IMG/VR virus record: IMGVR_UViG_3300048577_000420
Location: 22,579 to 86,578 of that record
Source: a virus
Lineage: Duplodnaviria; Heunggongvirae; Uroviricota; Caudoviricetes
Direction: 5' to 3' (one strand)
DNA: 64,000 bases
Shown here one piece after another: positions 2,721-64,000 of this stretch (the first letter of the stretch is position 1; each line of letters starts with the position of its first letter). Below the pieces are notes generated by a model. The model made no database searches. It worked only from the letters and a program-made list of their open reading frames with translations, and was not told the origin of the DNA. The translations under genes and the position numbers were made by a program.

Positions 2721-2907
2721 TTACTCGTGCCGTGACGGACCCCCCGCCGGCACCTAACGGCAGGTGGTCTCTCGCGATGGGGGCCGAGCGGATTTTCGAT
2801 AACGGGTCCTGTGCGCGCGCAGCATTGAGCCGCCGAGCGTGTCGATGACGCAGTCATCGAATCCGGCTACTCTCTCCGGGTCGAGACATCCACCCGAGGG
2901 AGAATCA

Positions 2908-3552: not shown

Positions 3553-3598
3553 TCGTCGCGTCAGCCGGGCGTGTGCCGGCTCCGGGTGGAATGGAGTC

Positions 3599-3868
3599 AT
3601 GCTCCGGAGCCGACTTCGCCCCCCTCGCGAGCAGGGTCGCGTGCTCGGATGGTGCGAGAGGCACCTGCCGATCGGCCCCACCGGGCTCCAGGTCACGCTG
3701 TCGAAGATCGGGTACGGCGTCTCCCCCGCCGTGCATCGCGTGATTCCGTGGGTCGTTCTCGTGCTGCATTCCCGCACGCTCGACTTCACCATTCCGCTCG
3801 TCCGCATTCCAGGAGCCACGTACGCCGAGCTCTGGTGGGACGACGACGAGGGCTGGGACGAGGCCTGA
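3599..3868 (+). CDS. Hypothetical 89-aa protein, translationally coupled to the sigma factor gene
   Basis: Frame 2 is protein-like with high GC3. The alternative upstream extension of the sigma frame is R-rich junk. Stop overlaps the sigma ATG (TGATG). Confidence 0.45.
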   Translation: MLRSRLRPPREQGRVLGWCERHLPIGPTGLQVTLSKIGYGVSPAVHRVIPWVVLVLHSRTLDFTIPLVRIPGATYAELWWDDDEGWDEA

Positions 3869-11482: not shown

Positions 11483-12160
11483 ATGCCCGTACCCCAGGGC
11501 GCGACCACCGACGTCATCACGGCTGACGTCTGGAACCGCCTCGTCGCGGCCGCCAACCAGGTGCAGCTCTTCCAGGTCGGCGCCAACCCCTACACCGACC
11601 TCTCGCTGCCCGGCGACTACCCCCAGGGCGTGACCGCCTTCAGCATCGAGGACGCGACGGGGTCGACCTGGCCTACGAGCTGGGCAGTCGTCGAGACCGT
11701 GCGCGTCAACACCACGCGGTGCCTGCAGCGGGCCACGAACAACCTCGGGTACGTCTACCAGCGGGTGGCGAACGGCGTCACGAACGCATGGTCGGCGTGG
11801 TCCCTCGTCGCCGGCCCCTGCGCCACCGCGGTACCCACGGCCGGCACCGGCTGGACCCAGATCCCCGGCCTGGCCGACCTGCAGTGCGTCCGCGACGAGA
11901 ACCTCATGGTCACCGTGCAGGGCATGGTGCGCCGGACCGGCGCGTCGATCACCGGCGGGTCGACGGGCACGATCATCAGCCTGCCTGCGGGCTTCCGGCC
12001 GACGAAGGCCATCTACGCGAGCCAGGCGCGTGACGGCGGCGCGGCGAACATGATCTTCGACAACACGGGCAACGTCAGCGCGGAGATCGCAGGCACCTGG
12101 AACAAGGACATCTCGTACGTGTCCTTCCACCTGACCTTCAAGGCCGCGGCAGTCAGCTAG
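11483..12160 (+). CDS. Tail fibre-like protein, paralogous to the C-terminal domain of the 8699..11335 product
   Basis: TWPTSWAVVETVRVNTTRCLQRATN here matches SWPAPYAIVETIRTGIGRCIQRLTA in the upstream gene. Confidence 0.6.
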   Translation: MPVPQGATTDVITADVWNRLVAAANQVQLFQVGANPYTDLSLPGDYPQGVTAFSIEDATGSTWPTSWAVVETVRVNTTRCLQRATNNLGYVYQRVANGVTNAWSAWSLVAGPCATAVPTAGTGWTQIPGLADLQCVRDENLMVTVQGMVRRTGASITGGSTGTIISLPAGFRPTKAIYASQARDGGAANMIFDNTGNVSAEIAGTWNKDISYVSFHLTFKAAAVS

Positions 12161-13007
12161 CGAGCGCGTCAGCCCGTCGGGGCTTGCGGCCGCGATCGGA
12201 CTGCCACAGGCGCTCCATCCAGCTGTCCGAGCGCCCCACACGCGCCGCGGCGCTCCAGGGGTCCATGCCGTGGTCGACGAGGAACCAGTACTCCTCGCGC
12301 ACCGCCTCGGTGTCCATCGCATCCTCGTCGGCCAGGATCCCGGTCTCGCCGTCCCAGAGCGGGTCGTCGAAGAAGAAGTCCCGGTCGAAGGCCTCGGGCG
12401 GCAGCCAGCCGGCGGACCGCGCGACTGCCGCCGCGTGTCTCTGTGGTCCTGGCGTCAGCGCGTGCTCGCGGACGACGTCCATGAGCCGCAGCGCGTACTC
12501 CATCGTGACCTTCGAGCGCCCGTAGCAGTTGGCGTCCCCGTGCATGAAGCGGCGCATCATCGCGTGGCCGTAGCCCATGACGGCCATCGCCTGGAACCGG
12601 CGCCGGCTCCCACCTACGGGTGCGAACCGCGCCGCGTTCTCCAGGTGAGGCAGCTCGCGGAGCTTCTGCATCGTCACGGGCGCGACGTACTCGCCCCGAC
12701 CGTGCTGGATCTTCCAGAGCTGGCTCGTGCTGATCCCCGCGGCCGTCGCCACCGCCTTCATCGAGAGGTTGTGCAGCGCGGCCTGCTTGTGGAGCACGAC
12801 CGCCGCCTCCTGGACGGGCGTGCGCCACTTCCAGTCCGGGTTCGCATGGCGGCGGAGCTCGTGCTCCTGCGCGCGCCGGTAGCGCGTCCTCCCGTCGGCA
12901 CCCACGCCTGGCCTTGGCACTCGCGCACTCCTCTCTCGATGCTGCGACGGAGAGGTTGACCTGCGGAGACGCTCGCCGTCCAGGCAGGGCGATTCCTGCC
13001 AGCGCAC
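12153..13007 (-). CDS. XRE-type HTH DNA-binding protein, leftward-transcribed (candidate repressor or regulator). Start codon uncertain
   Basis: HTH segment LHKQAALHNLSMKAVATAAGISTSQLWKIQHGRGEYVAPVTMQKL. Opposite orientation to the flanking operons. An IR copy overlaps the putative GTG start. Confidence 0.6.
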   Translation of the reverse strand: MRWQESPCLDGERLRRSTSPSQHRERSARVPRPGVGADGRTRYRRAQEHELRRHANPDWKWRTPVQEAAVVLHKQAALHNLSMKAVATAAGISTSQLWKIQHGRGEYVAPVTMQKLRELPHLENAARFAPVGGSRRRFQAMAVMGYGHAMMRRFMHGDANCYGRSKVTMEYALRLMDVVREHALTPGPQRHAAAVARSAGWLPPEAFDRDFFFDDPLWDGETGILADEDAMDTEAVREEYWFLVDHGMDPWSAAARVGRSDSWMERLWQSDRGRKPRRADALAS

Positions 13008-13334: not shown

Positions 13335-13349
13335 CGAACACACGTTCGA
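13335..13349. promoter_or_regulatory. LexA/Cheo-like SOS box CGAAC-ACAC-GTTCGA, 17 bp upstream of the helicase start
   Basis: Matches the actinobacterial LexA consensus TCGAAC-N4-GTTCGA at 14 of 16 positions. Confidence 0.55.
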
Positions 13350-15827: not shown

Positions 15828-15835
15828 CGTGCGCT

Positions 15836-15862: not shown

Positions 15863-15877
15863 CGAACATCTGTTCGA
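15863..15877. promoter_or_regulatory. LexA/Cheo-like SOS box CGAAC-ATCT-GTTCGA, upstream of the packaging operon
   Basis: Read directly from the sequence. Same GAACA..TGTTCGATG context as the boxes at 13335 and 25662. Confidence 0.55.
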
Positions 15878-25661: not shown

Positions 25662-25675
25662 GAACACGTGTTCGA
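25662..25675. promoter_or_regulatory. LexA/Cheo-like box GAAC-ACGT-GTTCGA
   Basis: Read directly from the sequence. Confidence 0.5.
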
Positions 25676-43465: not shown

Positions 43466-43851
43466 TGCTCAAGCTCTCCCTGCCCGCATACGACGCCGAG
43501 CGTCCGCTCACCATCCGCCTGGTGGGCCGCTCGCGCGTCGCCCCGAACGGCGATCCCTTCTCCGGGGGCCAGGCCTACGCGCCGTTCTCGATCGAGCTCT
43601 ACCCCGACGCGTGGATCGGGGATGTCCGCGTCGCGCTCGACGAGGCGGCCTTCGCGACCCCTGCAGGTTCCGGCTGGTTCGACTTCGACGTGAGCCACTC
43701 CATCGACGTGCCCGCCGCGCTCGGACTCCACGGCGGTGAAGGCTGGTTCCGGCTTTGGTCGGAGAAGTGGGTGCTGATCACCGACTGCCAGGTGAGCTAC
43801 ACGCCGTCTGGACCGGGCGACGGCACCACCGCGCAGGGCTTCTTCTCGTGA
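43465..43851 (+). CDS. Hypothetical protein
   Basis: ORF track. Confidence 0.5.
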   Translation: MLKLSLPAYDAERPLTIRLVGRSRVAPNGDPFSGGQAYAPFSIELYPDAWIGDVRVALDEAAFATPAGSGWFDFDVSHSIDVPAALGLHGGEGWFRLWSEKWVLITDCQVSYTPSGPGDGTTAQGFFS

Positions 43852-44498
43852 TCCCTGTCCTCGTGCCACGTCGCCCGGACGGCGGCGTGCGCGATGCCGC
43901 CTGGTCGGTCCTGCAGGGCTCGGTGTGGGCGGGTCAGCCGTACGAGGTCGTCGAAGGCTTCCACGCCGAGGGGCCCTTCAACCGCTCGATGGCGCTCAAC
44001 GCCGCCGCGGCCAGCGCGGGCGTGTGGGAGGTTGCGGTCGTCGCCGACGCCGACACGTGGGTACACCCAGGCGCCCTGGCCGCGGCCGTCGAGCAAGCGG
44101 CGCGAGCCCGGCACATGGTCGTGCCGCATCGGTCCTGGCGCTGCCTGACCCCCACGGCGACCGCCCGGGTCCTGTCGACGAGGCGCGCCGTGCCGGGCGA
44201 GTGGCACCTGGAGCGGACCGGGGCGGAGGCCGTCTCGGGCGTGCTGGTCGTGCACCGCGAGCAGTGGGACGCCGCCGGAGGGTTCGACGAGCGGTTCGTC
44301 GGGTACGGCTGGGAGGACCTGGCGTTCGCGCGGGCCTGCGTGCTCACGGGCGGCTGGGAGCGGCTGGCCGGGGCCGGCGCCTGCTGGCACCTGCACCACG
44401 GCCACGACGTCGACCTCAACGATCCCCAGGTGCGGGCGAACGGGCGTCTCTTCGGCGTCTGGCAGCGGGCCGAGAGCGTCACCGATGCGCGCGCCTGA
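43848..44498 (+). CDS. Glycosyltransferase, GT-A fold (family-2-like)
   Basis: DXD-like motif VVADADTW and a GYGWEDLAF motif resembling the GWGGED motif of GT2/galactosyltransferases. Confidence 0.5.
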   Translation: MIPVLVPRRPDGGVRDAAWSVLQGSVWAGQPYEVVEGFHAEGPFNRSMALNAAAASAGVWEVAVVADADTWVHPGALAAAVEQAARARHMVVPHRSWRCLTPTATARVLSTRRAVPGEWHLERTGAEAVSGVLVVHREQWDAAGGFDERFVGYGWEDLAFARACVLTGGWERLAGAGACWHLHHGHDVDLNDPQVRANGRLFGVWQRAESVTDARA

Positions 44499-44745
44499 CC
44501 TCGTCCGCGTCCGCGGCGGCTGGCTGGTGAAGGAGGAGGCCGGCTGGCGCCTGGAGGTGCGTCCGCTCCTTCAGCTCTTCCGGCTCGTCGAGGTGCCGGC
44601 CGACTCGCCGATGGAGGTGGGCCGGTTCTGGTGCTACGCGACGTTCGAGGCCGCGGTGCTCGCGGCCGCAGCCTGGTCCGTGGCCGCCGACTCGCAGCCG
44701 GTGGGGTGGGTCCGCTCCGGGGGCGCCAGGCTCAGTGCCCCGTGA
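44485..44745 (+). CDS. Small hypothetical protein
   Basis: ORF track. Confidence 0.35.
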   Translation: MRAPDLVRVRGGWLVKEEAGWRLEVRPLLQLFRLVEVPADSPMEVGRFWCYATFEAAVLAAAAWSVAADSQPVGWVRSGGARLSAP

Positions 44746-44989
44746 GGAAGGTCGCCTCCACAGGCACCGTGCTCTTCGCGGGGATGGTCAGCGTCAGCTC
44801 GCCGGCGAACCCGTCCGTGGCGGCCGCGGTCACCGCGAGCGAGAGCGCCCAGCGGCCGGCCGTCTTGAGGCGCTTCATCGGCTCGCTCCTGGCGAGGGCA
44901 AGGAGGGCCTGTTCCAGCTCGACCTGGCTCGCGTCGGCACCCTTGTCCGGGGCGTTGGTGTTCGCCCGGACCGCAGGGGATGCAGTCAC
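44732..44989 (-). CDS. Small leftward hypothetical protein (85 aa)
   Basis: ORF track. Convergent with the tail module. Confidence 0.4.
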   Translation of the reverse strand: MTASPAVRANTNAPDKGADASQVELEQALLALARSEPMKRLKTAGRWALSLAVTAAATDGFAGELTLTIPAKSTVPVEATFLTGH

Positions 44990-45104
44990 TGTGACTCCTT
45001 GATCAAGAACTTACAACGGTGTGGTTCTCGCTGATCCTGTGTATCGCCCCTGCTCAGCGTCGGGGACTTTAGTCCGGTAACACGGGCGATGACCAAAAGT
45101 CAGC

Positions 45105-45152
45105 ATTCCGCTGCGCTAGCAGGAATCGCCGCGAAACCTGCGCTAGCAGGAA
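45105..45152. promoter_or_regulatory. Tandem pair of IR motif copies: ATTCCgcTGC-GCTA-GCAGGAAT and AACCTGC-GCTA-GCAGGAA, 30 bp centre to centre
   Basis: Read directly from the sequence. Lies in the 360-bp non-coding hub between the late and early regions. Confidence 0.65.
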
Positions 45153-45282
45153 GCAGCGCCGCTTGCGTCCCTGTCGGAGGCTGTGCGTAGAGTCCTCACC
45201 ACAAGCGAATCACCGGCCCGGACAGCGGGCCAGGCATCCGCGGCCTGAGCGCCGGGATGAGCCACCAAAGCAATCGGCTGAG

Positions 45283-45347
45283 GGCGGCACCTGAAAGCAC
45301 ACGCAGGAATGCGTGCGCCTCCAGGTGCCGCCCTCTTTTCGTTTTCC
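45283..45347 (+). terminator. Long compound hairpin GGCGGCACCTG..CAGGTGCCGCC with an inner stem and the T tract CTCTTTTCGTTTTCC, ending 10 nt before the RBS and ATG of the first early gene
   Basis: Read directly from the sequence. Confidence 0.5.
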
Positions 45348-45357
45348 AGGGAGAGTC

Positions 45358-45918
45358 ATGACGGAAGAGGTGCGGCACCCCAACGAGGTGCTGTCGCTGC
45401 TCGTCCTCGCGGCGACGGAGGCCTCACGCGAGGCCGACGTCTGCCTGGCCGCGGGGGACGCGGACGGCGTCCGGCAGTACCACGAGCTCCTGCACGGACT
45501 CGTCCACTCGATGGTCTACGGCTGGGGCGCCCAGGCCACAGCCCGCGCGATCTCGGCTCTCTGCGCCCAGGCGGTCGTCCTGCTCGACGGCGGCGACGGC
45601 AAGGTCGCGTCCTTCTCGAAGGACAGCGACGTCTGGACGTTCAAGGTGCTGCCGACGGACATCCCCGGCTTCCCCACGGAGATCGTCACCCGCGCCGCCC
45701 AGATCGTCTGCTCCTACGCGAACCTCATGGGCGACGCGGCGGCCCAGATCGCGGACCGCGGGCTGCCGGAGTCGTCCGCGGAGCCGCCGAGCCCGGACGT
45801 CGCAGCCTCGGTCGCCTCCTTCTACGCCCTCGTCGGCGCCGTGCCGCAGAACGAGACGTGCGCGGTGCTCGTGTGCCTCGTCTCGTTCGCCGGCGCCCTC
45901 TGCCAGGTCGGTGCCTGA
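45358..45918 (+). CDS. Hypothetical early protein
   Basis: ATG with GGGAGAG RBS. Confidence 0.55.
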   Translation: MTEEVRHPNEVLSLLVLAATEASREADVCLAAGDADGVRQYHELLHGLVHSMVYGWGAQATARAISALCAQAVVLLDGGDGKVASFSKDSDVWTFKVLPTDIPGFPTEIVTRAAQIVCSYANLMGDAAAQIADRGLPESSAEPPSPDVAASVASFYALVGAVPQNETCAVLVCLVSFAGALCQVGA

Positions 45919-46388
45919 TGGAGAAGTGGCTCATCGTCGCCGTCGTCGTCGTCACGGTCAGTGGCCTCGACTACCTCTGGCTCCGCCTGGAGGCGCGCCA
46001 CCGTTGGCACGGCCGGTCGCTGACCTCAGTCGCAATCGACGTCCTCGACGAGCGGCGCCGCCAGGACCAGAAGTGGGGCATCCAGAACCATCCTGACGTC
46101 TCCGAGCCCGACGACCCGGACTACGTCGCGATGGTCGTCGAGTCCTCCATGGATCGCGCGGAGCACTGGAAGGCGGAGAACGCCCGCCGGGTCGAGCAGG
46201 GCAACCTCTCGTGGGACGGGATCCTCCTGGAGGAGGTCTACGAGGCCCTCGCCGAGACCGACCCCGAGCGCAAGGCCGAGGAGCTCATCCAGGTCGCCGC
46301 CGTCGCCCAGGTCTGGGTGGAGTGCATCGATCGCAGGCTCGACGCCGCGGAGGTCATCGCGGGCAAGCGCCAGGCGGTGCTCCCGTGA
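45918..46388 (+). CDS. Hypothetical protein with an N-terminal TM helix
   Basis: ATGA coupling. N-terminus WLIVAVVVVTVSGL. Confidence 0.5.
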   Translation: MEKWLIVAVVVVTVSGLDYLWLRLEARHRWHGRSLTSVAIDVLDERRRQDQKWGIQNHPDVSEPDDPDYVAMVVESSMDRAEHWKAENARRVEQGNLSWDGILLEEVYEALAETDPERKAEELIQVAAVAQVWVECIDRRLDAAEVIAGKRQAVLP

Positions 46389-46672
46389 AGATGACCGCCG
46401 GCACCGACTCCACCAGCGCGCGGCTCATCGCCGCGGCCCAGGCCATCCAGCTCGCCGAGCGTTTGCCCGACGCGACCGCCAAGACGGTCGTCAACCGCGC
46501 CAAGGCGGCGAGGGCAGCCATCGTCGCCTGCGAGCCGTCGCTCGCCCTCTCGGTCCTCAGGGACATCGAGGAGGTAGTCGCTGACTGCGGCGACGCCGAG
46601 GTCATCGAGGTCGTGAAGCGGCGGATCGAGGAACTCCGTCGGCCGGTCGAGTTCGCCGCGAGGCGCTCGTGA
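46385..46672 (+). CDS. Small hypothetical protein
   Basis: GTGA coupling. Confidence 0.45.
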   Translation: MKMTAGTDSTSARLIAAAQAIQLAERLPDATAKTVVNRAKAARAAIVACEPSLALSVLRDIEEVVADCGDAEVIEVVKRRIEELRRPVEFAARRS

Positions 46673-47625
46673 TCATCCGACAGAGCGACCTGGCGTCCTT
46701 CCAGCGCTGCGCGCAGGAGGTCAAGCTCCGTCGCCTCGCCGTCGAGCAGGGCTGGGCCGAGCCCGCGCTCTCGGCGACCCTGCGCGGCAGCGTCCTGCAC
46801 TACGCCTTCATGGTCCTCGCCCGGCTGATGCACGAGGGCCGCGAGGACGCACTGGAGGTCGCGCTCGCGACGTTCGAGCACTACTGGGACCCGCGCCACA
46901 TCACGGAGCTGGAGGGCATCGACCGGCCCGTCGACGAGTGGATCGGCACGGACACCTGGGGCGGCCTGCTCCAGCGCTCCCTCGGCAACCTCCGGGCCGC
47001 GGCTGCCTGGCTGAAGCGTGACAAGGCGGTGCTGCTCGGCCTGGAGCACTCCTTCGACGTGCCCATCGTGATCGACGGCGAGGAGCACACCCTCCACGGG
47101 ACCGTCGACATGCTCAACCTCCGCATGGTCAACAGCCGGCCCGAGCTCGGCATCGACGACCTCAAGGGGTACCGGCGGAAGAAGACCCGGCTCGACCGGG
47201 CGACCCAGTGGACCGTCTACTCCTACGCCTCGCTGCAGCCCCAGTTCTGGGTGCCCTTCTACGAGAACGCCGAGGTCCTGGAGGGCTTCGCGGAGGTCGT
47301 CGACCGCCTCGACCTGCGCGGCCTCGCGCTCTACCCGCCGGCGACGCCCGACGAGCGCACGGTCATCCCCCGCGTGGGCCGCCTGCTGTGGGCCTGGGAC
47401 GGCTTCGAGGTCCAGTCCACCGGCTACCGCACGGACCTGCACTACGCCCAGCTCCGCGCCCAGCTCCGCGAGTACATCGGCGCGGTCCGGCACGGCGTCT
47501 GGCCCCTGACCGTCGACGCCCACGTCTGCGACTACTGCCCGTTCGGCGGTCTGCGAGCCGACGGCTCCGGGCTCCCCATCTGCGGCGACGCACCCATCCC
47601 ACCCCGACAGGAAGGCATCCAGTGA
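46669..47625 (+). CDS. PD-(D/E)XK nuclease of the Cas4/RecB family (recombination exonuclease)
   Basis: N-terminal Cys (QRC) and a C-terminal CDYCPF..C Fe-S-type cysteine cluster. Confidence 0.65.
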   Translation: MIIRQSDLASFQRCAQEVKLRRLAVEQGWAEPALSATLRGSVLHYAFMVLARLMHEGREDALEVALATFEHYWDPRHITELEGIDRPVDEWIGTDTWGGLLQRSLGNLRAAAAWLKRDKAVLLGLEHSFDVPIVIDGEEHTLHGTVDMLNLRMVNSRPELGIDDLKGYRRKKTRLDRATQWTVYSYASLQPQFWVPFYENAEVLEGFAEVVDRLDLRGLALYPPATPDERTVIPRVGRLLWAWDGFEVQSTGYRTDLHYAQLRAQLREYIGAVRHGVWPLTVDAHVCDYCPFGGLRADGSGLPICGDAPIPPRQEGIQ

Positions 47626-48308
47626 CCGGCCCCATCACCCACGAGGAGCACCAGGCGATCGAGCGCCTGGACCGCCTCTCCGACGTCATCGCGAGGTGGC
47701 GCATGGAAGTCGACCCCGGCGCGGAGTACGCCGCCAAGGTCGCCCAGGAGATCGCCACCGTCGGCACCTACCTGCTCGACAACCCGCGGCCCGTCGTCCA
47801 GCCGCACGTCTCGTACGAGGGCGACGACCTCGCCGCCCTCCGCATGAGCATCGACGAGCGGATCGAGCGCCTCGGCACGGGCTTCGAGGACGAGGACGAG
47901 GACCCGATCCTCGCGCTCGTCGCCGACCTGATCGAGTACCGGGTCGCGCTCTGGGACGAGCCCGCCGGCTACGTGCTCGCCGAGCCGACCAAGGCCCTCT
48001 GGCAGCAGGACCAGGCCGTCGAGGAGGCGCTGGGCGAGCTGGAGCAGGTCCTCAGCGACGAGCCGGTCATCGTGCCCGCCTCGGAGCTGGCGCACGTGGA
48101 CCACGGCCTCCTGCTGCGCGCCACGCACCTGCACTCCACCGACGGCGCCTGCCTCAAGCACCGCTCGGGCCCGCCGTGCAACCCGGCGAAGGGGATGGCC
48201 GACCACCCCTCCAGCAACACCTACGCGGGCGTCGCCGGCGCGCTGCGCAACCCGGTCAAGGGCGGCCCGGCCACCCACGTCGCGATCAACCTGGTGGTGA
48301 CCCTGTGA
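47622..48308 (+). CDS. Hypothetical protein
   Basis: GTGA coupling. Confidence 0.5.
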   Translation: MTGPITHEEHQAIERLDRLSDVIARWRMEVDPGAEYAAKVAQEIATVGTYLLDNPRPVVQPHVSYEGDDLAALRMSIDERIERLGTGFEDEDEDPILALVADLIEYRVALWDEPAGYVLAEPTKALWQQDQAVEEALGELEQVLSDEPVIVPASELAHVDHGLLLRATHLHSTDGACLKHRSGPPCNPAKGMADHPSSNTYAGVAGALRNPVKGGPATHVAINLVVTL

Positions 48309-49594
48309 TCCAGATCAAGACCACCGGCCTCGACGACTACCTCGACGGCGACGGCGGCACCACGAACATCAAGGCGCTCATCCTCGGGCGCCCCGGCACC
48401 GGCAAGACGCGCGGTGCCTCGTACTGGAAGCGCCCCTTCCTGATCGACGGCGAGAAGAGCCGCTCGGTCCTGAACGACCGCCCGACCCCGTACGCCGAGG
48501 TCTCCTGCGCGGAGGACCTCAAGGAGATCATCCGCTACCTCAAGGTCGAGGCGGGCAAGCCCAACCGGAAGTACGACACGGTCATCGTCGACACGGTCGA
48601 CGGCATCCAGCTGAAGCTCATCAAGGAGCGTCTGGCGAAGGTCAAGCGCGACCGGATGGAGGCCTACGAGGGCGACTACGACGCCGTCAACACGCCGCTC
48701 ACCGACTTCATCGACGAGCTCCGTGAGCTGCCCTACAACGTCGTCGTCAACGTCCACCTCAAGGAGGCCGGCAAGGTCGCCAAGAAGGACGACCCGGGCC
48801 CCGCGGCGCGCGGCGACGACACGATCACCCAGGCCCAGGCGTGGGACCCGGACCTCGCAGGTGGGATCCGCCAGAAGCTTGCCGGCTGGTTCGACCTCGT
48901 GGGCCTGATGGAGAACACCTGGACGGTCAAGGACGGCAAGAAGGTCATCGGTCGCCAGATCCGCTGGCAGCCCACGCCGGAGCTGCCCTACCTCAAGGAC
49001 CGCCTCTACGCCTTCCCGCCCGTCACGCCCGTCAACTTCGAGGACGCCGACTACGAGCGGCTGGTCGGGTACCTCCAGAAGAAGGCCGCGCGGCTGAAGC
49101 CGGGTGAGGTCGTCGAGGAGATCGGCGAGCCGAGCAAGGCGGCACCGCCGGACATCCCGGGCGGGCCCGTCAAGGCCGAGCCGTCGGGCGTCCTCCCGAG
49201 GCCGCGCGCCGCCGCCAAGCCGAAGGGGGCGAAGGCAGAGGGCGCCGCGAAGGACGCGCCCGAGCCCGCCCCCGATCCGACTCCCGAGGTCCCGTCGGCG
49301 GAGGGCCCGGCGCCCGAGGCGGTCACCGCCCCGCTCGACCAGGTCGTCGACGCCGAGGTCGTCACCGAGGCCGCAGCCGAGCCGGAGGTCGCGCCCGAGG
49401 AGGCCGTCGCCGCCGTCCAGGAGGTCCTCGGCGGGGAGGTCGTCGCGGAGGAGGTCGACTACGCCGCCCAGGCCGAGAAGGCCACCAACCGCGAGGAGAT
49501 CCGCGCGATCTGGGACGCGGCGAAGACCGCCGGCCAGCTCACTTCTGCCCTGAAGGCGCGGCTCACCGTTCTGGGCCGCAAGCTCGCGGCCTGA
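48305..49594 (+). CDS. RecA-fold ATPase, Sak4/AAA_24-like, with an acidic Pro/Ala/Glu-rich C-terminal tail
   Basis: Walker A ILGRPGTGKT, Walker B-like VIVDTVD. Confidence 0.6.
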   Translation: MIQIKTTGLDDYLDGDGGTTNIKALILGRPGTGKTRGASYWKRPFLIDGEKSRSVLNDRPTPYAEVSCAEDLKEIIRYLKVEAGKPNRKYDTVIVDTVDGIQLKLIKERLAKVKRDRMEAYEGDYDAVNTPLTDFIDELRELPYNVVVNVHLKEAGKVAKKDDPGPAARGDDTITQAQAWDPDLAGGIRQKLAGWFDLVGLMENTWTVKDGKKVIGRQIRWQPTPELPYLKDRLYAFPPVTPVNFEDADYERLVGYLQKKAARLKPGEVVEEIGEPSKAAPPDIPGGPVKAEPSGVLPRPRAAAKPKGAKAEGAAKDAPEPAPDPTPEVPSAEGPAPEAVTAPLDQVVDAEVVTEAAAEPEVAPEEAVAAVQEVLGGEVVAEEVDYAAQAEKATNREEIRAIWDAAKTAGQLTSALKARLTVLGRKLAA

Positions 49595-50246: not shown

Positions 50247-52208
50247 GTGTCTGACCTGGACGTCCGCGGCTACCTGCGGTCCAAGGCCCTCGACGTGAAG
50301 GCCGCGGGCAAGGAGCTCGTCGTCCCCTGCTTCTTCCTCTGCGGGGAGCCCGGGGACTCCCGCAAGAAGAAGCTCTACGTCAACGCCGAGCACGGCGCGT
50401 TCTCCTGCAAGGTCTGCGGCACCGAGGGTGGCTGGCGCCGCATCCTTGAGCACTTCGGCGACGAGGAGCGCGCCGACACCTTCAAGCCCTCGCGGCGCCT
50501 GCAGGTCAACGCCGAGTACGTCCGGGCCTGCCAGGACGCGCTCATGGCGAACGAGCGTGCGCTCACCTACCTCTTCGACCGCGGCCTCACGCTGGACACG
50601 ATCGAGGCCGCCCGCCTGGGCTACCACCCCAAGGGCACGGCGATCGTCGAGCACCTGCCCTCGGCCCTGAAGCCGGGCGGCTTCACGCGGGACGAGCTGC
50701 GCGAGTCCGGCCTGCTCACCGCGAGCGGCCGCGACTTCCACGAGGGCCGGATCATCCTGCCGTACGTCGTCTCCGGCCAGGTCGTCCAGGTCCGCGGCCG
50801 GGCGCTCGACCCCAAGGCGCAGATCAAGTACGCCACGCCCGCCGGCGACGAGGTGCGCCTCTACAACTCCGACGCGCTGCGCGGCGCTGACGCGGTGATC
50901 GTCGTCGAGGGCGAGATCGACCTGCTCATGCTGCAGCAGGCGCTCCAGTCCTCTCCCGACGTCCGTGCGCGGAACCTCGCGGTCGTCGCCGTGCCCGGGT
51001 CGCAGGCGCTGCCCGGCGGCAAGGAGGGGTTCGGCGAGTACTTCGAGGACATCCGCCGGGTCTACGTCGGCTTCGACAGCGACAACGCCGGCAAGCAGGG
51101 CGCGATCAAGGTCAAGGACATGCTCGGGGCCAAGGCCCGGGTCGTCGAGCTCAAGGGCGCGAAGGACTGGGCCGAGCTCATCGCGGACGGCTCGACCTGG
51201 CGCGACGTCATGGACCTCGTCGCCGAGGCCGACATGCGCGGCAAGAGGGTCTTCTCGATCGAGGAGTCGGCCCGGAAGCTCTTCGCGATCGAGCAGGGCA
51301 AGCCCGGCATCAAGACGGGCTTCGCCAGCCTCGACGCGTTCCTCGCCCCCGGCCTCCTGCCGGGCGGCGTCACGATCCCGCTCGCGAAGACGGGCAACGG
51401 GAAGTCGATCTTCCTCGCCAACGTCGCCTACTACGCCCGCCACGTCCCGACGCTCTACATCACGCTGGAGCTCACCGCGGCGGAGACCTACAACCGCCTG
51501 CGCCGGATCACTCGCTTCCACCACCCGACCGCGGGCGAGCGCGAGGTCTGGGCCCAGTACCCGCTGCTCGGCCTCGTCGAGGACAACCGGCTCTCCCCCG
51601 AGGACTTCGAGCGCCTCGTGGAGGAGTTCGCCGAGGAGCGCGGCGAGCGCCCCCAGCTGGTCTTCGTCGACCACCTCACCTACTACGCCCACTACCAGAA
51701 GGGCGCCGGCGAGTACGAGAAGACGACCGCCGCCGTCATGCAGCTGAAGGAAGAGGCCAAGCGGCACGAGGTCCACATCATCGCGCCGTCGCAGGTCAAC
51801 CGGACCAAGAAGCAGGGCGAGGCCCTGGAGCTGGAGAGCGCTCGCAACTCGGGGGCGATCGAGGAGACGGCCGACTTCGCCCTGGGCATCTGGCGGCCGC
51901 ACCTGGCCGACGACGTGGCCGGAGCGGCCCAGGCCGGCGCGGTCGGGGACGACCTGAACATCTCGATCCTCAAGTCGCGGCACGGCAACCAGGGGCGCAT
52001 CGCTCCGCTCGTCTTCTCGGCCGCCTCCCTCGTGATGGTCGACCGCGCCGACCGCAGAAACGCCCAGCGCGTGGCGCTGGAGAACGCCGCCATCAACCGC
52101 GGCGAGAAGTACCAGGCCATCTATGACCGCGACCGCCAGCGGGCGTGGGCAGACCAACAGGGAGCGCTGCTCCCCTCCGGAAAGGACACCGCAAGTGGCA
52201 ACTGCTGA
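50247..52208 (+). CDS. Bifunctional primase-helicase (zinc-binding domain, Toprim primase domain, DnaB-like helicase)
   Basis: Cys cluster CFFLCG..CKVCG. Toprim segment VVVEGEIDLLML. DnaB-like GNGKSIFLANVAYY and SQVNRTKKQGEALELESARNSGAIEETADF. Confidence 0.8.
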   Translation: MSDLDVRGYLRSKALDVKAAGKELVVPCFFLCGEPGDSRKKKLYVNAEHGAFSCKVCGTEGGWRRILEHFGDEERADTFKPSRRLQVNAEYVRACQDALMANERALTYLFDRGLTLDTIEAARLGYHPKGTAIVEHLPSALKPGGFTRDELRESGLLTASGRDFHEGRIILPYVVSGQVVQVRGRALDPKAQIKYATPAGDEVRLYNSDALRGADAVIVVEGEIDLLMLQQALQSSPDVRARNLAVVAVPGSQALPGGKEGFGEYFEDIRRVYVGFDSDNAGKQGAIKVKDMLGAKARVVELKGAKDWAELIADGSTWRDVMDLVAEADMRGKRVFSIEESARKLFAIEQGKPGIKTGFASLDAFLAPGLLPGGVTIPLAKTGNGKSIFLANVAYYARHVPTLYITLELTAAETYNRLRRITRFHHPTAGEREVWAQYPLLGLVEDNRLSPEDFERLVEEFAEERGERPQLVFVDHLTYYAHYQKGAGEYEKTTAAVMQLKEEAKRHEVHIIAPSQVNRTKKQGEALELESARNSGAIEETADFALGIWRPHLADDVAGAAQAGAVGDDLNISILKSRHGNQGRIAPLVFSAASLVMVDRADRRNAQRVALENAAINRGEKYQAIYDRDRQRAWADQQGALLPSGKDTASGNC

Positions 52209-56291: not shown

Positions 56292-56594
56292 GTGCACGTG
56301 ATCACGCTCGGGGTCCGAATGACGGCGCAGACGGACGGTTCGCAGGTCTGTCAGGGGGACCCCGAGCTGTTCTTCTCGGAGGTCTCGGCCGACAACGTCG
56401 CCGCAGCCAAGGCGTGCAGCCACTGCCCGTTTCAGCTGCCGTGCCGCCTCGAAGGTCTGGTCAACGACGAGGAGGGCGTGTGGGGCGGCTGGTCCTACAA
56501 CCGGCGCCGCCGGATGGGTCAAGCCGGCCGCCAGCGCGCAATCGAGGAACTGCGGTTTCTGCTAGCACAGGAAAGGACGGGATTGGCCTCTTGA
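56292..56594 (+). CDS. WhiB-like (Wbl) Fe-S transcription factor
   Basis: Four Cys spaced C-X22-C-X2-C-X5-C plus the GVWGG turn motif. The alternative ATG at 56319 gives a shorter product. Confidence 0.75.
   Translation: MHVITLGVRMTAQTDGSQVCQGDPELFFSEVSADNVAAAKACSHCPFQLPCRLEGLVNDEEGVWGGWSYNRRRRMGQAGRQRAIEELRFLLAQERTGLAS
56556..56573. promoter_or_regulatory. Degenerate IR copy TTTCTGC-TAGC-ACAGGAA inside the 3' end of the WhiB-like gene
   Basis: Read directly from the sequence. 5 of 7 arm matches. Confidence 0.35.
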
Positions 56595-56845
56595 CTGACA
56601 GCGATGTCAAGATTCTCGCGGTCCAGATCACCGACTCCGGAATGGAGTTGGTCGTCGCCGCAGAGAGCGAACGAAGGAAGGGACTGGGCGTCGCCCACAG
56701 CTACTTCGTCGATTTCGCCGGAGAGCGTTTCGGGCAGCAGGCCCGCGACATTCTCGACGAGATCGAGGACCTGGCAGAACGTGTCCACGTCGGCTGGAAG
56801 CGAGAGCCGAAGGCAGAGCCCGACAAGGAGGTGAGCGAGGAGTGA
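56591..56845 (+). CDS. Small acidic hypothetical protein. Start uncertain (TTG at 56591 or ATG at 56642)
   Basis: Open frame ending with a GTGA overlap into the next gene. Confidence 0.3.
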   Translation: MTDSDVKILAVQITDSGMELVVAAESERRKGLGVAHSYFVDFAGERFGQQARDILDEIEDLAERVHVGWKREPKAEPDKEVSEE

Positions 56846-57816
56846 AGGTCTACGTCGCGGGGCCCATGCGCAAGCGCCGGGCCTTCAACTTCCCCGCCTT
56901 CATGGAGGCCACCAGCGAGCTCCTGCAGCTCGGGCACGAGGTCTTCAACCCCGCCCAGCGGGACATCGACACCGGCTTCGACCCGCTCGGCATGACCGGG
57001 TTCGAGGACCTCAACGACGGCACGCACCGCTTCGACCTCCGCGAGGCCCTCGCGGCCGACACCGCGTGGATCGCCACCCAGGCGGAAGCGCTGTGCCTGC
57101 TGCCCGGGTGGGAGGAGTCCTCGGGCGCCCGGGCGGAGGTGGCCCTCGCCGCGGCCCTCGGGCTCCAGGCTGGCGAGCTCGCCGACTTCTACATCGGGAA
57201 CACCCTGCGGCCGGCAGCGGACTTCTACGCCGCCCGGTGGAACGCGAACCCGCCCAAGGTCGAGGGCGAACCGGTCCGCATCCACCTCACGGCCAACCGC
57301 CCGGGCACGCCCGGCGCGCCCCTGAGCGTGAACCCGGGCGCAGCGTCGCTCGGCACGCTCAGCATCGAGGACCTCGGCGGCCGCGACGGAGACGGCTCCC
57401 ACGAGGTCATTCCGCAGGGCGACGAGGTGCGCTTGACCTCCTCCACCGGTGGCCAGAAGGGCGACAAGGAGGCCCGGTTCGACCTCATCCCCGCCCGGCC
57501 GCTGTGGGAGCTCGCGACCCTCTACGGCCGCGGCGCCCAGAAGTATGCCGAGCGCAACTGGGAGAGCGGCTACGAGTTCCACCTGTCGTTCTCCGCCGCC
57601 ATGCGCCACGCCTGGTCGTGGTGGAACGGGGAGGACCGCGACCCCGAGACCGGCGTCAGCCATCTCGTCAACGCCGCCTGGCACCTCCTCAACCTCGTCC
57701 AGCTCCAGATCACCCACCCCGAGCACGACGACCGCCCCCAGCGGCGTCTCCCGCTCACCATCCCGAAGGGGGCGCTCCAGCGCCGCCCGCTCCCCACCCC
57801 GAGAGGAACCATCTGA
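56842..57816 (+). CDS. Fusion protein: N-terminal nucleoside 2-deoxyribosyltransferase-like (DUF4406/DNPH1-like) domain plus C-terminal dATP/dGTP pyrophosphohydrolase-like domain
   Basis: N-terminal MKVYVAGPM..FNPAQRD. C-terminal ARFDLIPARPLWELATLYGRGAQKYAERNWESGYEF. Confidence 0.55.
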   Translation: MKVYVAGPMRKRRAFNFPAFMEATSELLQLGHEVFNPAQRDIDTGFDPLGMTGFEDLNDGTHRFDLREALAADTAWIATQAEALCLLPGWEESSGARAEVALAAALGLQAGELADFYIGNTLRPAADFYAARWNANPPKVEGEPVRIHLTANRPGTPGAPLSVNPGAASLGTLSIEDLGGRDGDGSHEVIPQGDEVRLTSSTGGQKGDKEARFDLIPARPLWELATLYGRGAQKYAERNWESGYEFHLSFSAAMRHAWSWWNGEDRDPETGVSHLVNAAWHLLNLVQLQITHPEHDDRPQRRLPLTIPKGALQRRPLPTPRGTI

Positions 57817-58793
57817 TGTTCGTCCTGCTCCTGCTGCTCGCGGTCGCCGCGATCGGCGTGGCGATCGGCTCGTGCTTCGCGCCGAAGAAGTCGTCGTACG
57901 GCACCCCGATGCGCTCGATCCTGCGGCTCGCGGCCGGCGCCCTCGCCGTGCTCGCGGTCGTCGTCGGGCTCTTCTCGACGATCTACACCCAGCGGCCCGG
58001 CGAGGCGAAGGTCATCCTCAACTGGGGTGGCGGCGTCGCCGACGTCGACACGACGCCCGGCATCAGCTTCAAGGCGCCCTGGCAGTCGGCCAGCACGTGG
58101 GATCTGCTCTCGCAGACCGCCACGTACGCCGGCGACGACAAGGCGGTGCCCGCGTACACCGAGGGCAACATCCAGGGCAAGGAGATCACCGTCTCGCTCG
58201 CCAAGGGCGTGCAGGGCGACATCGACGCCCAGATCACCTACTCGCTGGACGCCGACAAGGCGACGCTGACGGACCTCTACAACCGGTTCCGCTCCCAGGA
58301 GTCCTTCACCCGCCAGATCATCCAGACCAACAACCTCTCCGAGATGCGCGAGGGGCCGAAGGAGATGGACGCCGTCACCTTCCGTGGTGAGGGCCGTGCG
58401 TCGGTGGAGCAGTCGGTGAAGGCCGCCCTCAACGATATCTACCGCCCGTACGGCGTGACGGTCTCGCAGGTCACCATCCAGGGCATCCGGTTCTCCGACA
58501 GCGTGGAGGCCTCGATCCAGGAGGCCGCCGCGGCCGCCCAGCGCCAGGTCACGGCCCAGGCCAACCTCGCGGCGACTCAGATCGACGCCCAGGCCCAGGT
58601 CGTCCAGGCCGAGCAGGCGGCGAAGGCGGCCGTCGCGAAGGCCCAGGGCGAGGCGGACGCGAACGCGCTGCTCGCCGCGTCGCTCACCCCCCAGGTGCTC
58701 CAGCAGCACTACATCGACGCCCTGAAGGCCGGCACGGTGTTCGTGGTGCCGGAGGGCTCGAACCCGCTCGTCCAGGTCCCCAGCGGCCACTGA
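57816..58793 (+). CDS. SPFH/band-7 (stomatin/prohibitin/HflC-like) membrane protein
   Basis: N-terminal TM helix, SPFH core, and a C-terminal Ala/Gln coiled coil. ATGA-coupled to the upstream fusion gene. Confidence 0.65.
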   Translation: MFVLLLLLAVAAIGVAIGSCFAPKKSSYGTPMRSILRLAAGALAVLAVVVGLFSTIYTQRPGEAKVILNWGGGVADVDTTPGISFKAPWQSASTWDLLSQTATYAGDDKAVPAYTEGNIQGKEITVSLAKGVQGDIDAQITYSLDADKATLTDLYNRFRSQESFTRQIIQTNNLSEMREGPKEMDAVTFRGEGRASVEQSVKAALNDIYRPYGVTVSQVTIQGIRFSDSVEASIQEAAAAAQRQVTAQANLAATQIDAQAQVVQAEQAAKAAVAKAQGEADANALLAASLTPQVLQQHYIDALKAGTVFVVPEGSNPLVQVPSGH

Positions 58794-59432: not shown

Positions 59433-59719
59433 TGACCACCCCGGAGCCCGGCCAGGTCTGGGCGGACAACGACCCCCGTGTTGCCGGTCGGACGATCCAG
59501 ATCGCCGCCATCGAAGGCGACGTGGCCCTCTGCACCGTGCTGACCAACAGCGACGCGGACCAGCGCGACATCGACCTGCTCGGCTCTCACGGGCCTCGCG
59601 GTCGGTACGTCGCCGGCGGCTGGGTCCCGGGCGACCGCCGAGGCGCCACCACCCGAGTCCGGCTCTCGCGGCTGCGGCCGACGTCGACCGGCTTCCGACT
59701 GATCGAGGAGACACGATGA
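59432..59719 (+). CDS. Hypothetical protein
   Basis: ATGA coupling. Confidence 0.45.
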   Translation: MTTPEPGQVWADNDPRVAGRTIQIAAIEGDVALCTVLTNSDADQRDIDLLGSHGPRGRYVAGGWVPGDRRGATTRVRLSRLRPTSTGFRLIEETR

Positions 59720-60078
59720 CGTTCGCCGTCGGGGACAAGGTCCTGATCGTCTGCCACAACCGGCCGTCCCAGGCCCCGGTCGAGGCCGAGGTGCTCTCGG
59801 TCGCGCGCAAGTACCTCTTCGCGCGCCCGCTCGGCGGTGGCCCCGCCTCGGGCGCGCGCTTCGACAAGGAGACGGGTGCCGAGAAGGACGGCGGCTTCTA
59901 CCACCGCACGATCTACACCCCGGAGGCCCTCGCCGAGAAGCGCGAGCGCGACACCCTGGGGCAGCGCCTCGCGTTCGCCACGCGCCCGTCCAACTGGACG
60001 AGGCGCCTCAGCCTGGAGGAGCTCCGCGCGGTGGCGGCCATCGTCGCGCCCGTCGCCGACGAGGAGGCGAGCCGCTGA
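59716..60078 (+). CDS. Hypothetical protein
   Basis: ATGA coupling. Confidence 0.5.
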   Translation: MTFAVGDKVLIVCHNRPSQAPVEAEVLSVARKYLFARPLGGGPASGARFDKETGAEKDGGFYHRTIYTPEALAEKRERDTLGQRLAFATRPSNWTRRLSLEELRAVAAIVAPVADEEASR

Positions 60079-62341: not shown

Positions 62342-64000
62342 GTGGAACTGGCCTTCTACGGCCGCGTGTCGACAGAGGACGCGCAGGACCCGGAGGCGTC
62401 CCGCGCCTGGCAACTTCGCCGGGCGCGGGACCTCGTTGAGCCGCTCGGCCACCGCATCGTGGTCGAGTACTTCGACATCGGCCAGAGCCGCTCCCTCCCC
62501 TGGAAGCGCCGCCGCGAGGCGAGCCGCCTGCTTGAGGACGTCCAGGGCGCCGGGCGCACGTTCCAGGGCATCGTCGTCGGCGAGCCCCAGCGCGCGTTCT
62601 ACGGCAACCAGTTCTCGCTGACCTTCCCGGTGCTGGTCCACTACGGCGTCGCCCTGTGGGTGCCGGAGGTCGGCGGCAAGGTCGACCCGGACTCCGAGGC
62701 GCACGACCTCGTGATGTCCCTCTTCGGCGGCATGTCGAAGGGCGAGCGGTCCCGCATCCGCACGAGGACCCGCCTGGCGATGCACGAGCTCGCCGCGAAC
62801 ACGGACCGCTTCCTCGGGGGGCGGCCGCCGTACGGCTACCAGCTGGCCGACGCCGGGCCGCACCCGAACCCCTCGAAGGCGGCGGCGGGCCAGCGGGCGC
62901 ACCGGCTGGAGCCCGACCCCATCACCGCGCCGCACGTGCGCACGATCTTCCACGCGTACGCCCAGGGTGCCGGCCTGCGCGAGATCGCCGACTCGCTCAC
63001 CTCGGCTGGGGTGCCCTCGCCGTCGGCGTACGACCGGCGCCGGAACTCCCACCGGGACCCTCGCGGCTGGTCGCACAGCGCCGTGCGCGCGATCCTGGCG
63101 AACCCGGCCTACAGCGGCGTCCGGGCCTGGGGCAAGCAGGAGAAGTACGAGACCCTCATGGACGTCGAGGACGTCGCCCTGGGCACCCAGGTCCGGATGC
63201 GCTGGCGCGACGCCGACGCGTGGGTGCGGCCCCACAGCAAGACGCACGAGGCGCTGGTGGACGACGACACGTTCGCCACCGTCCAGGGTCGCCTCGGCGC
63301 GCCGGGGCACAACGCCGACGCGACCCGGAAGCCCCGGGAGTCGGCCCACGTCTACACGCTGCGCGGCCTGCTTTACTGCGGCCTCTGCGGGCGCCGGATG
63401 CAGGGCGCGCGTCGCCCGAACCGCACCGAGGGCAGCGACCGCATCCTCTACCGCTGCGAGCTGATGCGGGGCCGGTCCATCGGCGACGAGTGCCCGGGCC
63501 ACCCGAAGACCGTCTACCTCAACGAGGCCGAGGTCGTGCCGCAGATCGACGCCTGGCTGGGCGGTCTGATGGCCGACACCTCGTGGCTCCTGGACTCCCA
63601 GCGGGCCGTCCGCGAGCCCGCCGAAGTGGTCGCGCTCCGCGAGCGCGCACGGGAGGTGGACGCCGCCCTGGCGAACCTCATGGCCGCCATCGAGCGGGGC
63701 GTGATGTCCGAGGCGATCCTCAGCCAGCTCCAGCAGCGGGAGGCCGAGAAGGCCGGGATCGCGGCCCGTCTGGCGGCCGTTGACCGGCCTCGGGAGGGCA
63801 TGTCGGCCGCCGACATCCGGGCCGTCATGGAGGCGTTCGGGGGCATGGCGGAGGTGCTCGCGCAGGCGACTCCGGAGGAGCGCGCGGCGGCGTATCAGAC
63901 CGTTGACCTGCGGCTTGACTTCGACCCGGGTACCAGGGAGATCGCCGCTGCGGCCGACCCGACCGCGTGTGTCGCTAACCGTGTCCGGAGGGGGACTTGA
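62342..64000 (+). CDS. int: Large serine recombinase (phage integrase), truncated at the window end
   Basis: N-terminal resolvase catalytic domain YGRVSTEDAQ with catalytic Ser. Recombinase domain and Zn-ribbon Cys (CGLCGRRM..C) further downstream. Confidence 0.85.
   Translation: MELAFYGRVSTEDAQDPEASRAWQLRRARDLVEPLGHRIVVEYFDIGQSRSLPWKRRREASRLLEDVQGAGRTFQGIVVGEPQRAFYGNQFSLTFPVLVHYGVALWVPEVGGKVDPDSEAHDLVMSLFGGMSKGERSRIRTRTRLAMHELAANTDRFLGGRPPYGYQLADAGPHPNPSKAAAGQRAHRLEPDPITAPHVRTIFHAYAQGAGLREIADSLTSAGVPSPSAYDRRRNSHRDPRGWSHSAVRAILANPAYSGVRAWGKQEKYETLMDVEDVALGTQVRMRWRDADAWVRPHSKTHEALVDDDTFATVQGRLGAPGHNADATRKPRESAHVYTLRGLLYCGLCGRRMQGARRPNRTEGSDRILYRCELMRGRSIGDECPGHPKTVYLNEAEVVPQIDAWLGGLMADTSWLLDSQRAVREPAEVVALRERAREVDAALANLMAAIERGVMSEAILSQLQQREAEKAGIAARLAAVDRPREGMSAADIRAVMEAFGGMAEVLAQATPEERAAAYQTVDLRLDFDPGTREIAAAADPTACVANRVRRGT

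Follow-up and report, generated by a model that had tools for sequence, protein, structure and literature searches.

What does the 368-bp gap at positions 44990-45357 of an actinobacterial phage genome do, and how are the genes that follow it switched on? The gap is found in a stretch of 64,000 nucleotides (hereafter, the window) of the IMG/VR record IMGVR_UViG_3300048577_000420, between two divergent genes: one for a protein of 85 amino acids on the minus strand, and the first early gene on the plus strand. The window has a G+C content of 71%, is part of a 440-kb metagenome contig from the Joint Genome Institute (JGI), and comes from a temperate actinobacterial phage or prophage. A temperate, phiC31-style lifestyle is indicated by the genes for a large serine recombinase (62342-64000, continuing past the end of the window, with Resolvase, Recombinase, and Zn_ribbon_recom domains) and for a WhiB-like regulator (56292-56594). 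The answer proposed here, to which we would give about even chances, is that the gap is the early-gene control region of this phage and that it holds a three-layer switch made of operators, an early promoter, and a structured leader RNA.

An earlier note on this DNA had described the gap as non-coding and low in G+C. Both observations hold, as the periodicity at third codon positions (GC3) of the flanking genes is absent from every frame in 44975-45350, and the G+C fraction is 0.54-0.58 at 44950-45100 versus 0.71 for the window. That this is the only sizeable non-coding stretch of the right half is roughly right, although a few gaps of ~200 bp remain; coding periodicity is seen in two other segments that look like gaps, 57.8-58.8 kb and 61.65-62.15 kb. 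With regard to relatives, a search of GenBank phage DNA with 44400-46000 gave no match, tblastn with the Sak4-like protein of the window gave a single irrelevant match, and a profile search of genome contigs with the primase alignment gave nothing. Two IMG/VR phages (UViG_3300012827_000001 and UViG_3300020138_000006) are true relatives, both of them collinear with the window and holding an exonuclease 62% identical. Ten related loci were aligned, three reached via the exonuclease or DNA patterns, four via a conserved late protein of 86 amino acids, and the rest via the 85-amino-acid protein. Eight loci carry the leader RNA described below (the window, L006, L073, L076, L075, L077, L007, and L070), while L065 and L068 complete the ten-locus family.

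Between the promoter and the ribosome-binding site (RBS) that precedes the first early gene, conservation is higher than in the flanking proteins, the mean column identity being 83% among the window, L006, and L007, versus 62% at the amino acid level for the exonuclease. Judging from its covariation, the transcript of this segment is a new conserved structured RNA which is not present in Rfam. This leader, of ~145 nt (45200-45346, plus strand, with its 5' end placed from the -10 hexamer), comprises the hairpins P1 and P2, a candidate antiterminator hairpin (AT or P3), and a terminator hairpin (T). P1 (45215-45231, plus strand, GGCCCG-GACAG-CGGGCC) is paired in 100% of the alignment cells and two of its six pairs covary, with compensatory changes to GACCCG/CGGGTC in L007 and GGTCCG/CGGACC in L077. 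P2 follows after a short linker (45237-45256, plus strand, core UCC-G-CGGC...GCCG-GGA), with 98% of the cells paired and five of seven pairs covarying, and T is paired in 97.4% of the cells, with 10 of 24 covarying pairs. In the seven-sequence alignment as a whole, 93.7% of the pair cells are canonical, and 22 of the 52 pairs have changed on both sides, versus 9.8 in column shuffles (none of 500 was as high); sliding the partners by one to three columns left at most four covarying pairs. The leader as a whole folds with z = -3.7.

A covariance model (R1) built on three of these sequences found four more phages and three truncated contigs, and the leader homologues score 168, 157, 144, 124, 113, and 51 bits, which makes seven distinct phages with the window. 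The window itself scores 147.8 bits on the plus strand versus 42.8 bits on the minus strand, and this difference of 105 bits, together with the frequent G-U pairs, indicates that the structure belongs to the plus-strand RNA. Rfam returned sub-threshold noise only, resembling microRNA hairpins (E ~0.2), and no tRNA or tmRNA was detected in the leader. A scan of genome contigs with the terminator pattern yielded only unrelated hairpins from Sphingomonas, Streptomyces, and Micromonospora (~30 bits from the stem alone), and of the 46 loci in a metagenome pattern scan, the real ones were only the two phages already known. A further helix predicted by RNAalifold between the 5' end of the RNA and the U-rich tail (P0) is treated as doubtful, since pairing holds in only 75% of its cells and the register is not constant. 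A leader peptide has also been rejected: the 34-codon open reading frame (ORF) at 45257-45361 is not conserved, its ATG being in another register in L006 and absent in L007.

These data bear on the proposal of the earlier note that the gap might also hold the origin of replication or the cos/pac neighborhood. A DNA-level element of this kind, be it an origin, a cos/pac site, or an attachment site, has only the inter-module position and the locally lower G+C in its favor, and we consider it extremely improbable. There are no iterons and no AT-rich unwinding element, the operators are the only repeats, the low-G+C half is not conserved among relatives, the integrase gene lies 17 kb away, and the part that is conserved covaries as a strand-specific RNA. 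In addition, the junction measures only 21-149 bp in relatives that share the gene order, which leaves no place in it for anything that replication or packaging would require.

The 3' end of the leader is the 56-nt compound hairpin T (45280-45335, plus strand), with two arms of 26 nt (45280-45305 and 45310-45335) that are 88% complementary. Its folding energy is -46.2 kcal/mol (z = -7.5; none of 200 shuffles folds as well), and its homologues fold at -31.6 to -46.4 kcal/mol. The long compound hairpin of the earlier note is therefore real and is conserved in related phages with compensatory changes, the check that the note had asked for, but the outer stem has 14 pairs (GAGGGCGGCACCUG/CAGGUGCCGCCCUC) and not 11, and the structure, which is indeed close to the RBS, ends 13 nt before it rather than about 10. 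The outer ~10 pairs (AGGGCGGCA/UGCCGCCCU) are invariant, while the inner stem and the loop are wholly different among phages and still paired. Directly 3' of T lies a U-rich tail, TTTTCGTTTTCC (45336-45347, plus strand), whose first ten positions (TTTTCGTTTT, 45336-45345) include eight U; the tails of the relatives (CTTTTCGTGTT, CTTTCTGCGTTT, CTTGTTGCGTTT, CTCTTTCTGTTT, CTTGTTGCGTCT, and CTTTTCTGTCGT) are all U-rich and imperfect. A simple terminator scanner did not flag T because its stem is compound. A pairing of the 3' arm of T with 45361-45379, within the first gene, has been discarded, as the downstream sequence differs in the relatives.

The 5' arm of T has a second predicted partner. 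As long as the 3' arm of T has not been made, the predicted fold of minimum free energy contains the AT hairpin (45261-45288, plus strand, GCCACC...AGC/GCU...GGGCGGC), in which GCCNCC (45261-45266) and GGGCGGC (45282-45288) are paired and enclose a small inner helix. The 3' strand of AT is the first seven paired nucleotides of the 5' arm of T. This fold is predicted in all seven sequences, with an energy of -8.9 to -10.0 kcal/mol when isolated and of -10.6 to -11.7 kcal/mol with two extra 3' nucleotides, and the lone substitution within GCCACC, an A to U in L077, is at a predicted unpaired or bulge position. Such a pairing would explain why the outer stem of T and the GCCNCC motif are invariant while the inner stem changes freely, and the predicted overlap suggests an antiterminator/terminator switch. 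The two options raised by the earlier note for a terminator-shaped structure in a 5' leader, attenuation or antitermination on the one hand and a small structured RNA on the other, remain the right pair to consider.

The location of T with respect to the first early gene is relevant to this choice. The RBS of this gene (AGGGAGAG, 45348-45355, plus strand) precedes an ATG at 45358 (not 45359), from which a fast-evolving protein of 186 amino acids is encoded (45358-45915, plus strand). The distance from the hairpin to the start codon is 14-30 nt in six of the seven members of the family, the exception being L077, with a gap of 70 nt. Because the terminator abuts the RBS in these six, there is no room for a separate early promoter, and the operon encoding the PD-(D/E)XK exonuclease (46669-47625), the Sak4-like AAA_24 ATPase (48305-49594), and the primase/DnaB helicase (50247-52208) would be expressed only by read-through. 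In relatives without the leader RNA, the same promoter is located directly before the early genes. Both the abutment and the layout of these relatives suggest that termination matters for the phage.

It could be argued that the hairpin is just an unconditional terminator that insulates the early genes from transcription of the late operon or of the operator region in the lysogen, with the upstream conservation reflecting regulation at the DNA level. The hairpin is very stable and it is placed at the junction of the late and early modules, which are on the same strand. Nevertheless, a conserved promoter fires into it from 80 nt upstream and no space for a promoter is left after it, so that the early operon would be silenced; the covariation of P1 and P2, with G-U pairs, is that of RNA helices; and the minus-strand 85-amino-acid gene separates the late operon from the hairpin. 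For these reasons, we regard insulation as very unlikely.

As for the first early protein, it has no homologue in a set of 5.8 billion proteins nor in IMG/VR. A weak '..LHG..H....YG' block is common to it and its counterparts in L076 and L077 (37-42% identity across 36-64 amino acids), and the first early gene is a different one in L007 and L070, with 72-76 amino acids.

Upstream of the leader, the earlier note had seen the best candidate for the main early promoter and operator, a proposal that is strengthened by the relatives, since the geometry of operator and promoter is the same in the eight leader-carrying loci and the promoter motif is present in the ten loci of the family. The core promoter (45172-45193, plus strand) consists of TGTCGG (-28 to -23), 10 bp, and the -10 hexamer TAGAGT (45188-45193). 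The resulting sequence, TGTCGG-aggctgtgcg-TAGAGT, is an exact match to the consensus tGTCgg(N10)tA(N3)T of the promoters of PafBC (RecA-NDp promoters). The strictly conserved contact of these promoters is the GTC at -27 to -25, combined with a canonical -10, and PafBC substitutes for -35 recognition through 'sigma adaptation' (PMC8635444). The motif is unique in the window when both strands are scanned, and each of the 10 family loci, L065 and L068 included, has a single occurrence of the pattern GTC-N12-TAGN[GT]T, which is always at the homologous site. The -26 block of the nine relatives reads CGTCGG twice, TGTCAG three times, TGTCGG twice, and TGTCTG and TGTCAC once each, and the rest of the promoter spacer is variable among loci.

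A -35-like hexamer, TTGCGT (45163-45168, plus strand), is located 19 bp upstream of the -10. The order proximal operator, 10 bp, TTGCGN, 19 bp, TAG(A/T)GT, CCTC is invariant in the eight leader-carrying loci, and TTGCGN, TTGCAA, TTGACC, or TTACAC appears at an equal spacing in all ten loci. This spacing is unfavorable for a direct contact of sigma region 4, yet the hexamer is conserved. Streptomyces is reported to have promoters of the RecA-NDp type (PMC5087735). In the literature searched, no description of an early phage promoter of the PafBC type was found.

Immediately upstream of the promoter are the operator candidates. The earlier note had claimed two tandem inverted-repeat operators 30 bp apart; the two copies are present, as exact occurrences of CTGCGCTAGCAGGAA at 45111 and 45138, but they start 27 bp apart. 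Each is part of a longer unit, the 18-bp inverted repeat TTCCTGC-GCTA-GCAGGAA, with symmetric arms of 7 bp. The distal copy (CCGCTGCGCTAGCAGGAA, 45108-45125, plus strand) and the proximal one (AACCTGCGCTAGCAGGAA, 45135-45152, plus strand) would be centered at about -83.5 and -56.5 from the predicted transcription start. The proximal operator is found at a constant 10 bp upstream of the TTGCGN hexamer in all eight leader-carrying loci, its sequence being a variant one in L007 and L070, and a more degenerate second copy occupies the same place in L006, L073, L076, L007, and L070.

This repeat is not restricted to the gap. Allowing up to three mismatches, the operator 15-mer has 20 matches in the window versus 1.5 expected (none of 100 shuffles reaches 20), and a position weight matrix gives 22 matches at ~17 places versus 0.45 expected. 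Ten of the 11 strongest sites are intergenic and just upstream of gene starts. Besides the two early copies, strong sites lie at 1190 (intergenic), at 3535 (18 nt upstream of the start of a sigma-factor gene), at 12993 (minus strand) and 13275 (the divergent region between genes for an XRE-like helix-turn-helix (HTH) protein and a UvrD-like helicase), upstream of the genes at 15900 (site at 15835) and 25709 (site at 25620), at 50215 (14 nt before the RBS of the primase gene), and at 54876 (intergenic); the sole exception is 56556 (minus strand), in the 3' end of the WhiB gene. Weaker copies have been located at 21084, 23379, 29569, 36774, 41255, 55367, and 62216. At 3535 and 15835 the repeat sits inside a longer palindrome with CGYGACG...CGTCRCG flanks, and the copy at 25620 stands directly after a terminator-like hairpin, GGAAGGCCCC...GGGGGCCTTCC.

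In UViG_3300012827_000001, the same 18-mer occurs at least nine times in the parts that were fetched, including the positions homologous to 3535 (sigma-factor gene), 15835, 50215 (primase gene), and the early promoter. In L007 (UViG_3300020138_000006) and L070, a changed palindrome, TTCCSCGCTAGSGSGGAA, occupies the operator positions of the early promoter, and in the former it is also found upstream of the primase gene. By their operator, L006, L073, L076, and L077 group with the window. The conservation of the positions together with the change of sequence between sister phages is the pattern expected of an operator that co-evolves with a phage-encoded regulator. The orientation of the operator is reversed at homologous sites in relatives (L002). 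The obvious candidate for the immunity repressor that would bind these sites is the XRE-like HTH protein of 255 amino acids (12153-12920, minus strand; phrog_1590, with weak matches to the repressor phrog_6223 and to TetR_N), whose gene is transcribed counter to its surroundings and is itself preceded, in the divergent region, by operator copies.

Two sets of matches have been discarded. Exact 18-mers in L004 (33% G+C) and L005 are chance or repeat matches, and GCAGGAAT, in the terminator loop, is not a third operator half-site, because L070 has the same loop and a different operator. This loop, CGCAGGAAUGCG (45300-45311; ~355-366, minus strand, in L070), is common to the window and L070 and contains the half-site GCAGGAA, probably by coincidence.

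A different type of site accompanies three of the operator copies. Three exact cores of the actinobacterial SOS (LexA) box, GAACnnnnGTTCGA, are located at 13336-13349, 15864-15877, and 25662-25675, with no other exact copy in the window, each of them following an operator copy by 11-43 nt and shortly preceding the start of a gene. The genes by these boxes are that of the UvrD-like helicase, at 13303, and two uncharacterized genes at 15900 and 25709. Streptomyces SOS boxes start with TCGAAC (PMC9380542). According to these positions, the host LexA may control three phage operons.

The gene on the other side of the gap (44732-44989, minus strand), supported by its ORF and GC3, starts with GTG after the RBS AAGGAG. 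Its leftward promoter and 5' untranslated region presumably lie within the left half of the gap (44990-45107), which is lower in G+C and poorly conserved in relatives. A putative promoter can be read there on the minus strand (TTGGTC at 45096-45091, 19 nt, and TAAAGT at 45071-45066); its hexamers are not kept in L006 or L007, and no leftward promoter could be defined through conservation among relatives. The 85-amino-acid protein has homologues (P0013-P0023) with the conserved motifs RPAS and G-x-LTI-x-IPxK, and its AlphaFold2 model (pLDDT 73) shows two helices and a beta-hairpin. It has no match in Pfam, PHROG, PDB sequences, or Foldseek, and nothing in the Pfam, fold, and PDB searches supports the name 'outer membrane protein W' given by the JGI to P0015 (44732-44989).

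Every leader found with R1 adjoins a homologue of this gene. The two are adjacent in the seven loci with enough flank, and the leader is absent from the four syntenic relatives that lack the gene; this joint presence and absence indicates that both behave as one cassette between the late and early modules. On the basis of this co-occurrence, the 85-amino-acid protein is the best candidate for a factor acting on the leader.

The same cassette behavior can be read in another way, in which the 145-nt transcript would be a stand-alone small RNA acting in trans, either as a sponge for a protein or through base-pairing of its invariant loops, ACCAAAGCA and GACAG, with the hairpin as its own terminator and the early genes expressed by constitutive leak-through. 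In favor of this, the RNA is compact, is made of several hairpins, and has a promoter of its own and a strong terminator; it is more conserved than the flanking proteins, is invariant in its loops, and moves with the 85-amino-acid gene between phages that differ in their downstream genes, and the phage also encodes a ProQ_C-like protein (59716-60078). However, with the terminator abutting the first early RBS in six of seven phages, the efficiency of termination necessarily sets early expression, neither a complement nor a repeat of the invariant motifs occurs elsewhere in the window, and the overlap of AT and T would be purposeless in a plain small RNA. We consider a trans-acting function unlikely.

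The leader might also be a cis-acting RNA for processive antitermination like put of phage HK022, in which P1 and P2 would bind RNA polymerase and terminators would be resisted without a protein factor. The layout fits (early promoter, two adjacent covarying stem-loops, terminator, and early genes), and the relatives that lack the RNA lack the terminator as well. Such a mechanism leaves unexplained the invariant overlap of AT and T and the strict co-occurrence with the 85-amino-acid gene, and an adjacent terminator would be pointless unless the put-type action were itself regulated. Put elements are, to our knowledge, known only from lambdoid phages of enterobacteria. Altogether, this alternative is quite improbable.

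Returning to the three-layer switch, the mechanism that can be postulated is as follows. A dimeric phage-encoded regulator would bind the two 18-bp repeats just upstream of the early promoter, and likewise a dozen or more further sites where phage transcription units begin. This regulator would be the immunity repressor, blocking activation of the promoter from the operator positions. After DNA damage, host PafBC activated by single-stranded DNA would recruit the housekeeping RNA polymerase to the early promoter, thereby coupling early-gene expression directly to the RecA-independent damage response. Transcription from ~45200 would first yield the leader, with P1, P2, the terminator hairpin, and the U-rich tail. 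AT would form first in the nascent RNA and occupy seven nucleotides of the 5' arm of T, and a factor that stabilizes AT, or acts via P1 and P2, would choose between termination and read-through, the 85-amino-acid protein being the best candidate for that role. The elements themselves, with their conservation and covariation, the dispersed operator family, the motif match, and the co-occurrence are observed; the proteins that bind, the sign of the regulation, the dependence on PafBC, and the conditional nature of termination are inferred.

Several points weigh against this reading. In the operator layer, the XRE-like HTH protein is only a candidate for binding the inverted repeat, and operator centers at -56.5 and -83.5 fit activators better than repressors. 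With regard to the promoter, the PafBC motif is short, and a loose version of it is expected 0.5-0.8 times per window by chance. Besides, TTGCGN is conserved at an unusual spacing of 19 bp, whereas PafBC promoters have been described without a -35 (PMC8635444), so that the elements could instead make up an ordinary promoter of the housekeeping sigma factor, with a spacer of 19 bp. According to one study, the mycobacterial PafBC motif is not conserved in S. venezuelae as far as could be seen there (PMC9380542). In the RNA layer, the transcription start, termination, and read-through are all deduced from sequence. The U-tails are imperfect, particularly in L007 and L076, with interrupted tracts such as TTGTTGCGTTT. 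The five outer pairs of AT are invariant, so they lack the support of covariation, and AT is ~35 kcal/mol weaker than T and cannot compete thermodynamically by itself; if the switch is real, something must stabilize AT or act through P1/P2. The 85-amino-acid protein, for its part, has no recognizable RNA- or DNA-binding fold. Finally, the alignment used for covariation was fitted to a model that had itself been derived from these sequences, which biases the numbers in favor of the structure. That the covariation signal is real is nevertheless argued by the slid controls and by L077, a divergent and independent member.

Compared with known systems, each layer exhibits both similarities and differences. 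The bipartite motif of PafBC promoters is matched exactly here and kept in the ten loci of the family, but the known members drive host DNA-repair genes and not a phage early promoter, and in this case there is also a conserved -35-like TTGCGN at 19 bp and, immediately upstream, candidate operators for another protein. With respect to the dispersed operators, the conserved inverted repeats of phiC31 are scattered sites for the phage repressor. Both these and the stoperators of mycobacteriophages resemble the repeat described here in that one short motif is found at the early promoter and at many intergenic sites, and in that the motif, and presumably the protein which binds it, diverges between related phages. 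Stoperators of Cluster A mycobacteriophages are asymmetric 13-mers, bound by a monomer and acting in one orientation (PMC9283540). The site in the window, on the contrary, is an 18-bp near-palindrome whose orientation flips between homologous sites.

As for the RNA, the ribonucleic antiterminator (RAT) elements of BglG, SacY, and LicT are protein-dependent antiterminator/terminator switches. With them the leader would share, if AT forms as predicted, an imperfect hairpin of ~28 nt with internal loops, located in a 5' leader, whose 3' strand overlaps the 5' arm of a far more stable intrinsic terminator. The leader shows, however, no sequence resemblance to RAT and has two further covarying hairpins, P1 and P2, upstream, and no protein with CAT/PRD domains appears among the ~60 window proteins scanned against Pfam, which leaves the 85-amino-acid protein as the only candidate partner. 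The nut/N system of lambda and put of HK022 are early antitermination systems which, like the region in question, combine an early promoter, a signal in structured RNA, and a terminator that polymerase has to pass before early and delayed-early genes are expressed; the layout of P1, short linker, P2, and terminator resembles that of put. These systems belong to another phylum and have no sequence similarity to the leader, their terminators come after the first gene and not before it, and no N-like protein has been identified here.

The sensing of DNA damage by prophages of high-GC Gram-positive bacteria is far less understood than in lambda. If the proposed reading is true, an early promoter with PafBC architecture would be a direct route to induction without repressor cleavage, the leader RNA and a small protein without a recognized fold would constitute a tractable candidate pair for protein-RNA antitermination, and the dispersed 18-bp operator, with its diverged sister version, would offer a system for the evolution of immunity specificity. 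A possible, though rather doubtful, extension is that this phage family wired its lytic switch to PafBC through the -26 element and that a subgroup added the RNA switch and its 85-amino-acid reader, in such a way that, with LexA boxes on three operons, the prophage would hear both arms of the damage response. If the promoter is an ordinary housekeeping one and the terminator is merely leaky, the gap would be a normal, well-organized phage early control region.

Other phage genes of the window encode a glycosyltransferase (43830-44498), a tail-collar fibre, and a peptidoglycan (PG)-binding lysin. The sigma-factor gene preceded by the operator copy at 3535 (3571-4611) encodes a sigma-70-family protein with regions 2 and 4 (phrog_351), and an Lsr2-like nucleoid protein is encoded at 2839-3228. 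The Phage_ProQ_C_like domain of the protein at 59716-60078 (E = 5e-18) makes it possibly RNA-associated. There are also genes for an SPFH/Band 7 protein (57819-58793) and for a fusion of DUF4406 with the N-terminal domain of a dATP/dGTP diphosphohydrolase (56842-57816; MazZ-like, PF18909, E = 1e-30). MazZ-like enzymes accompany phage genomes with a modified base, 2-aminoadenine.

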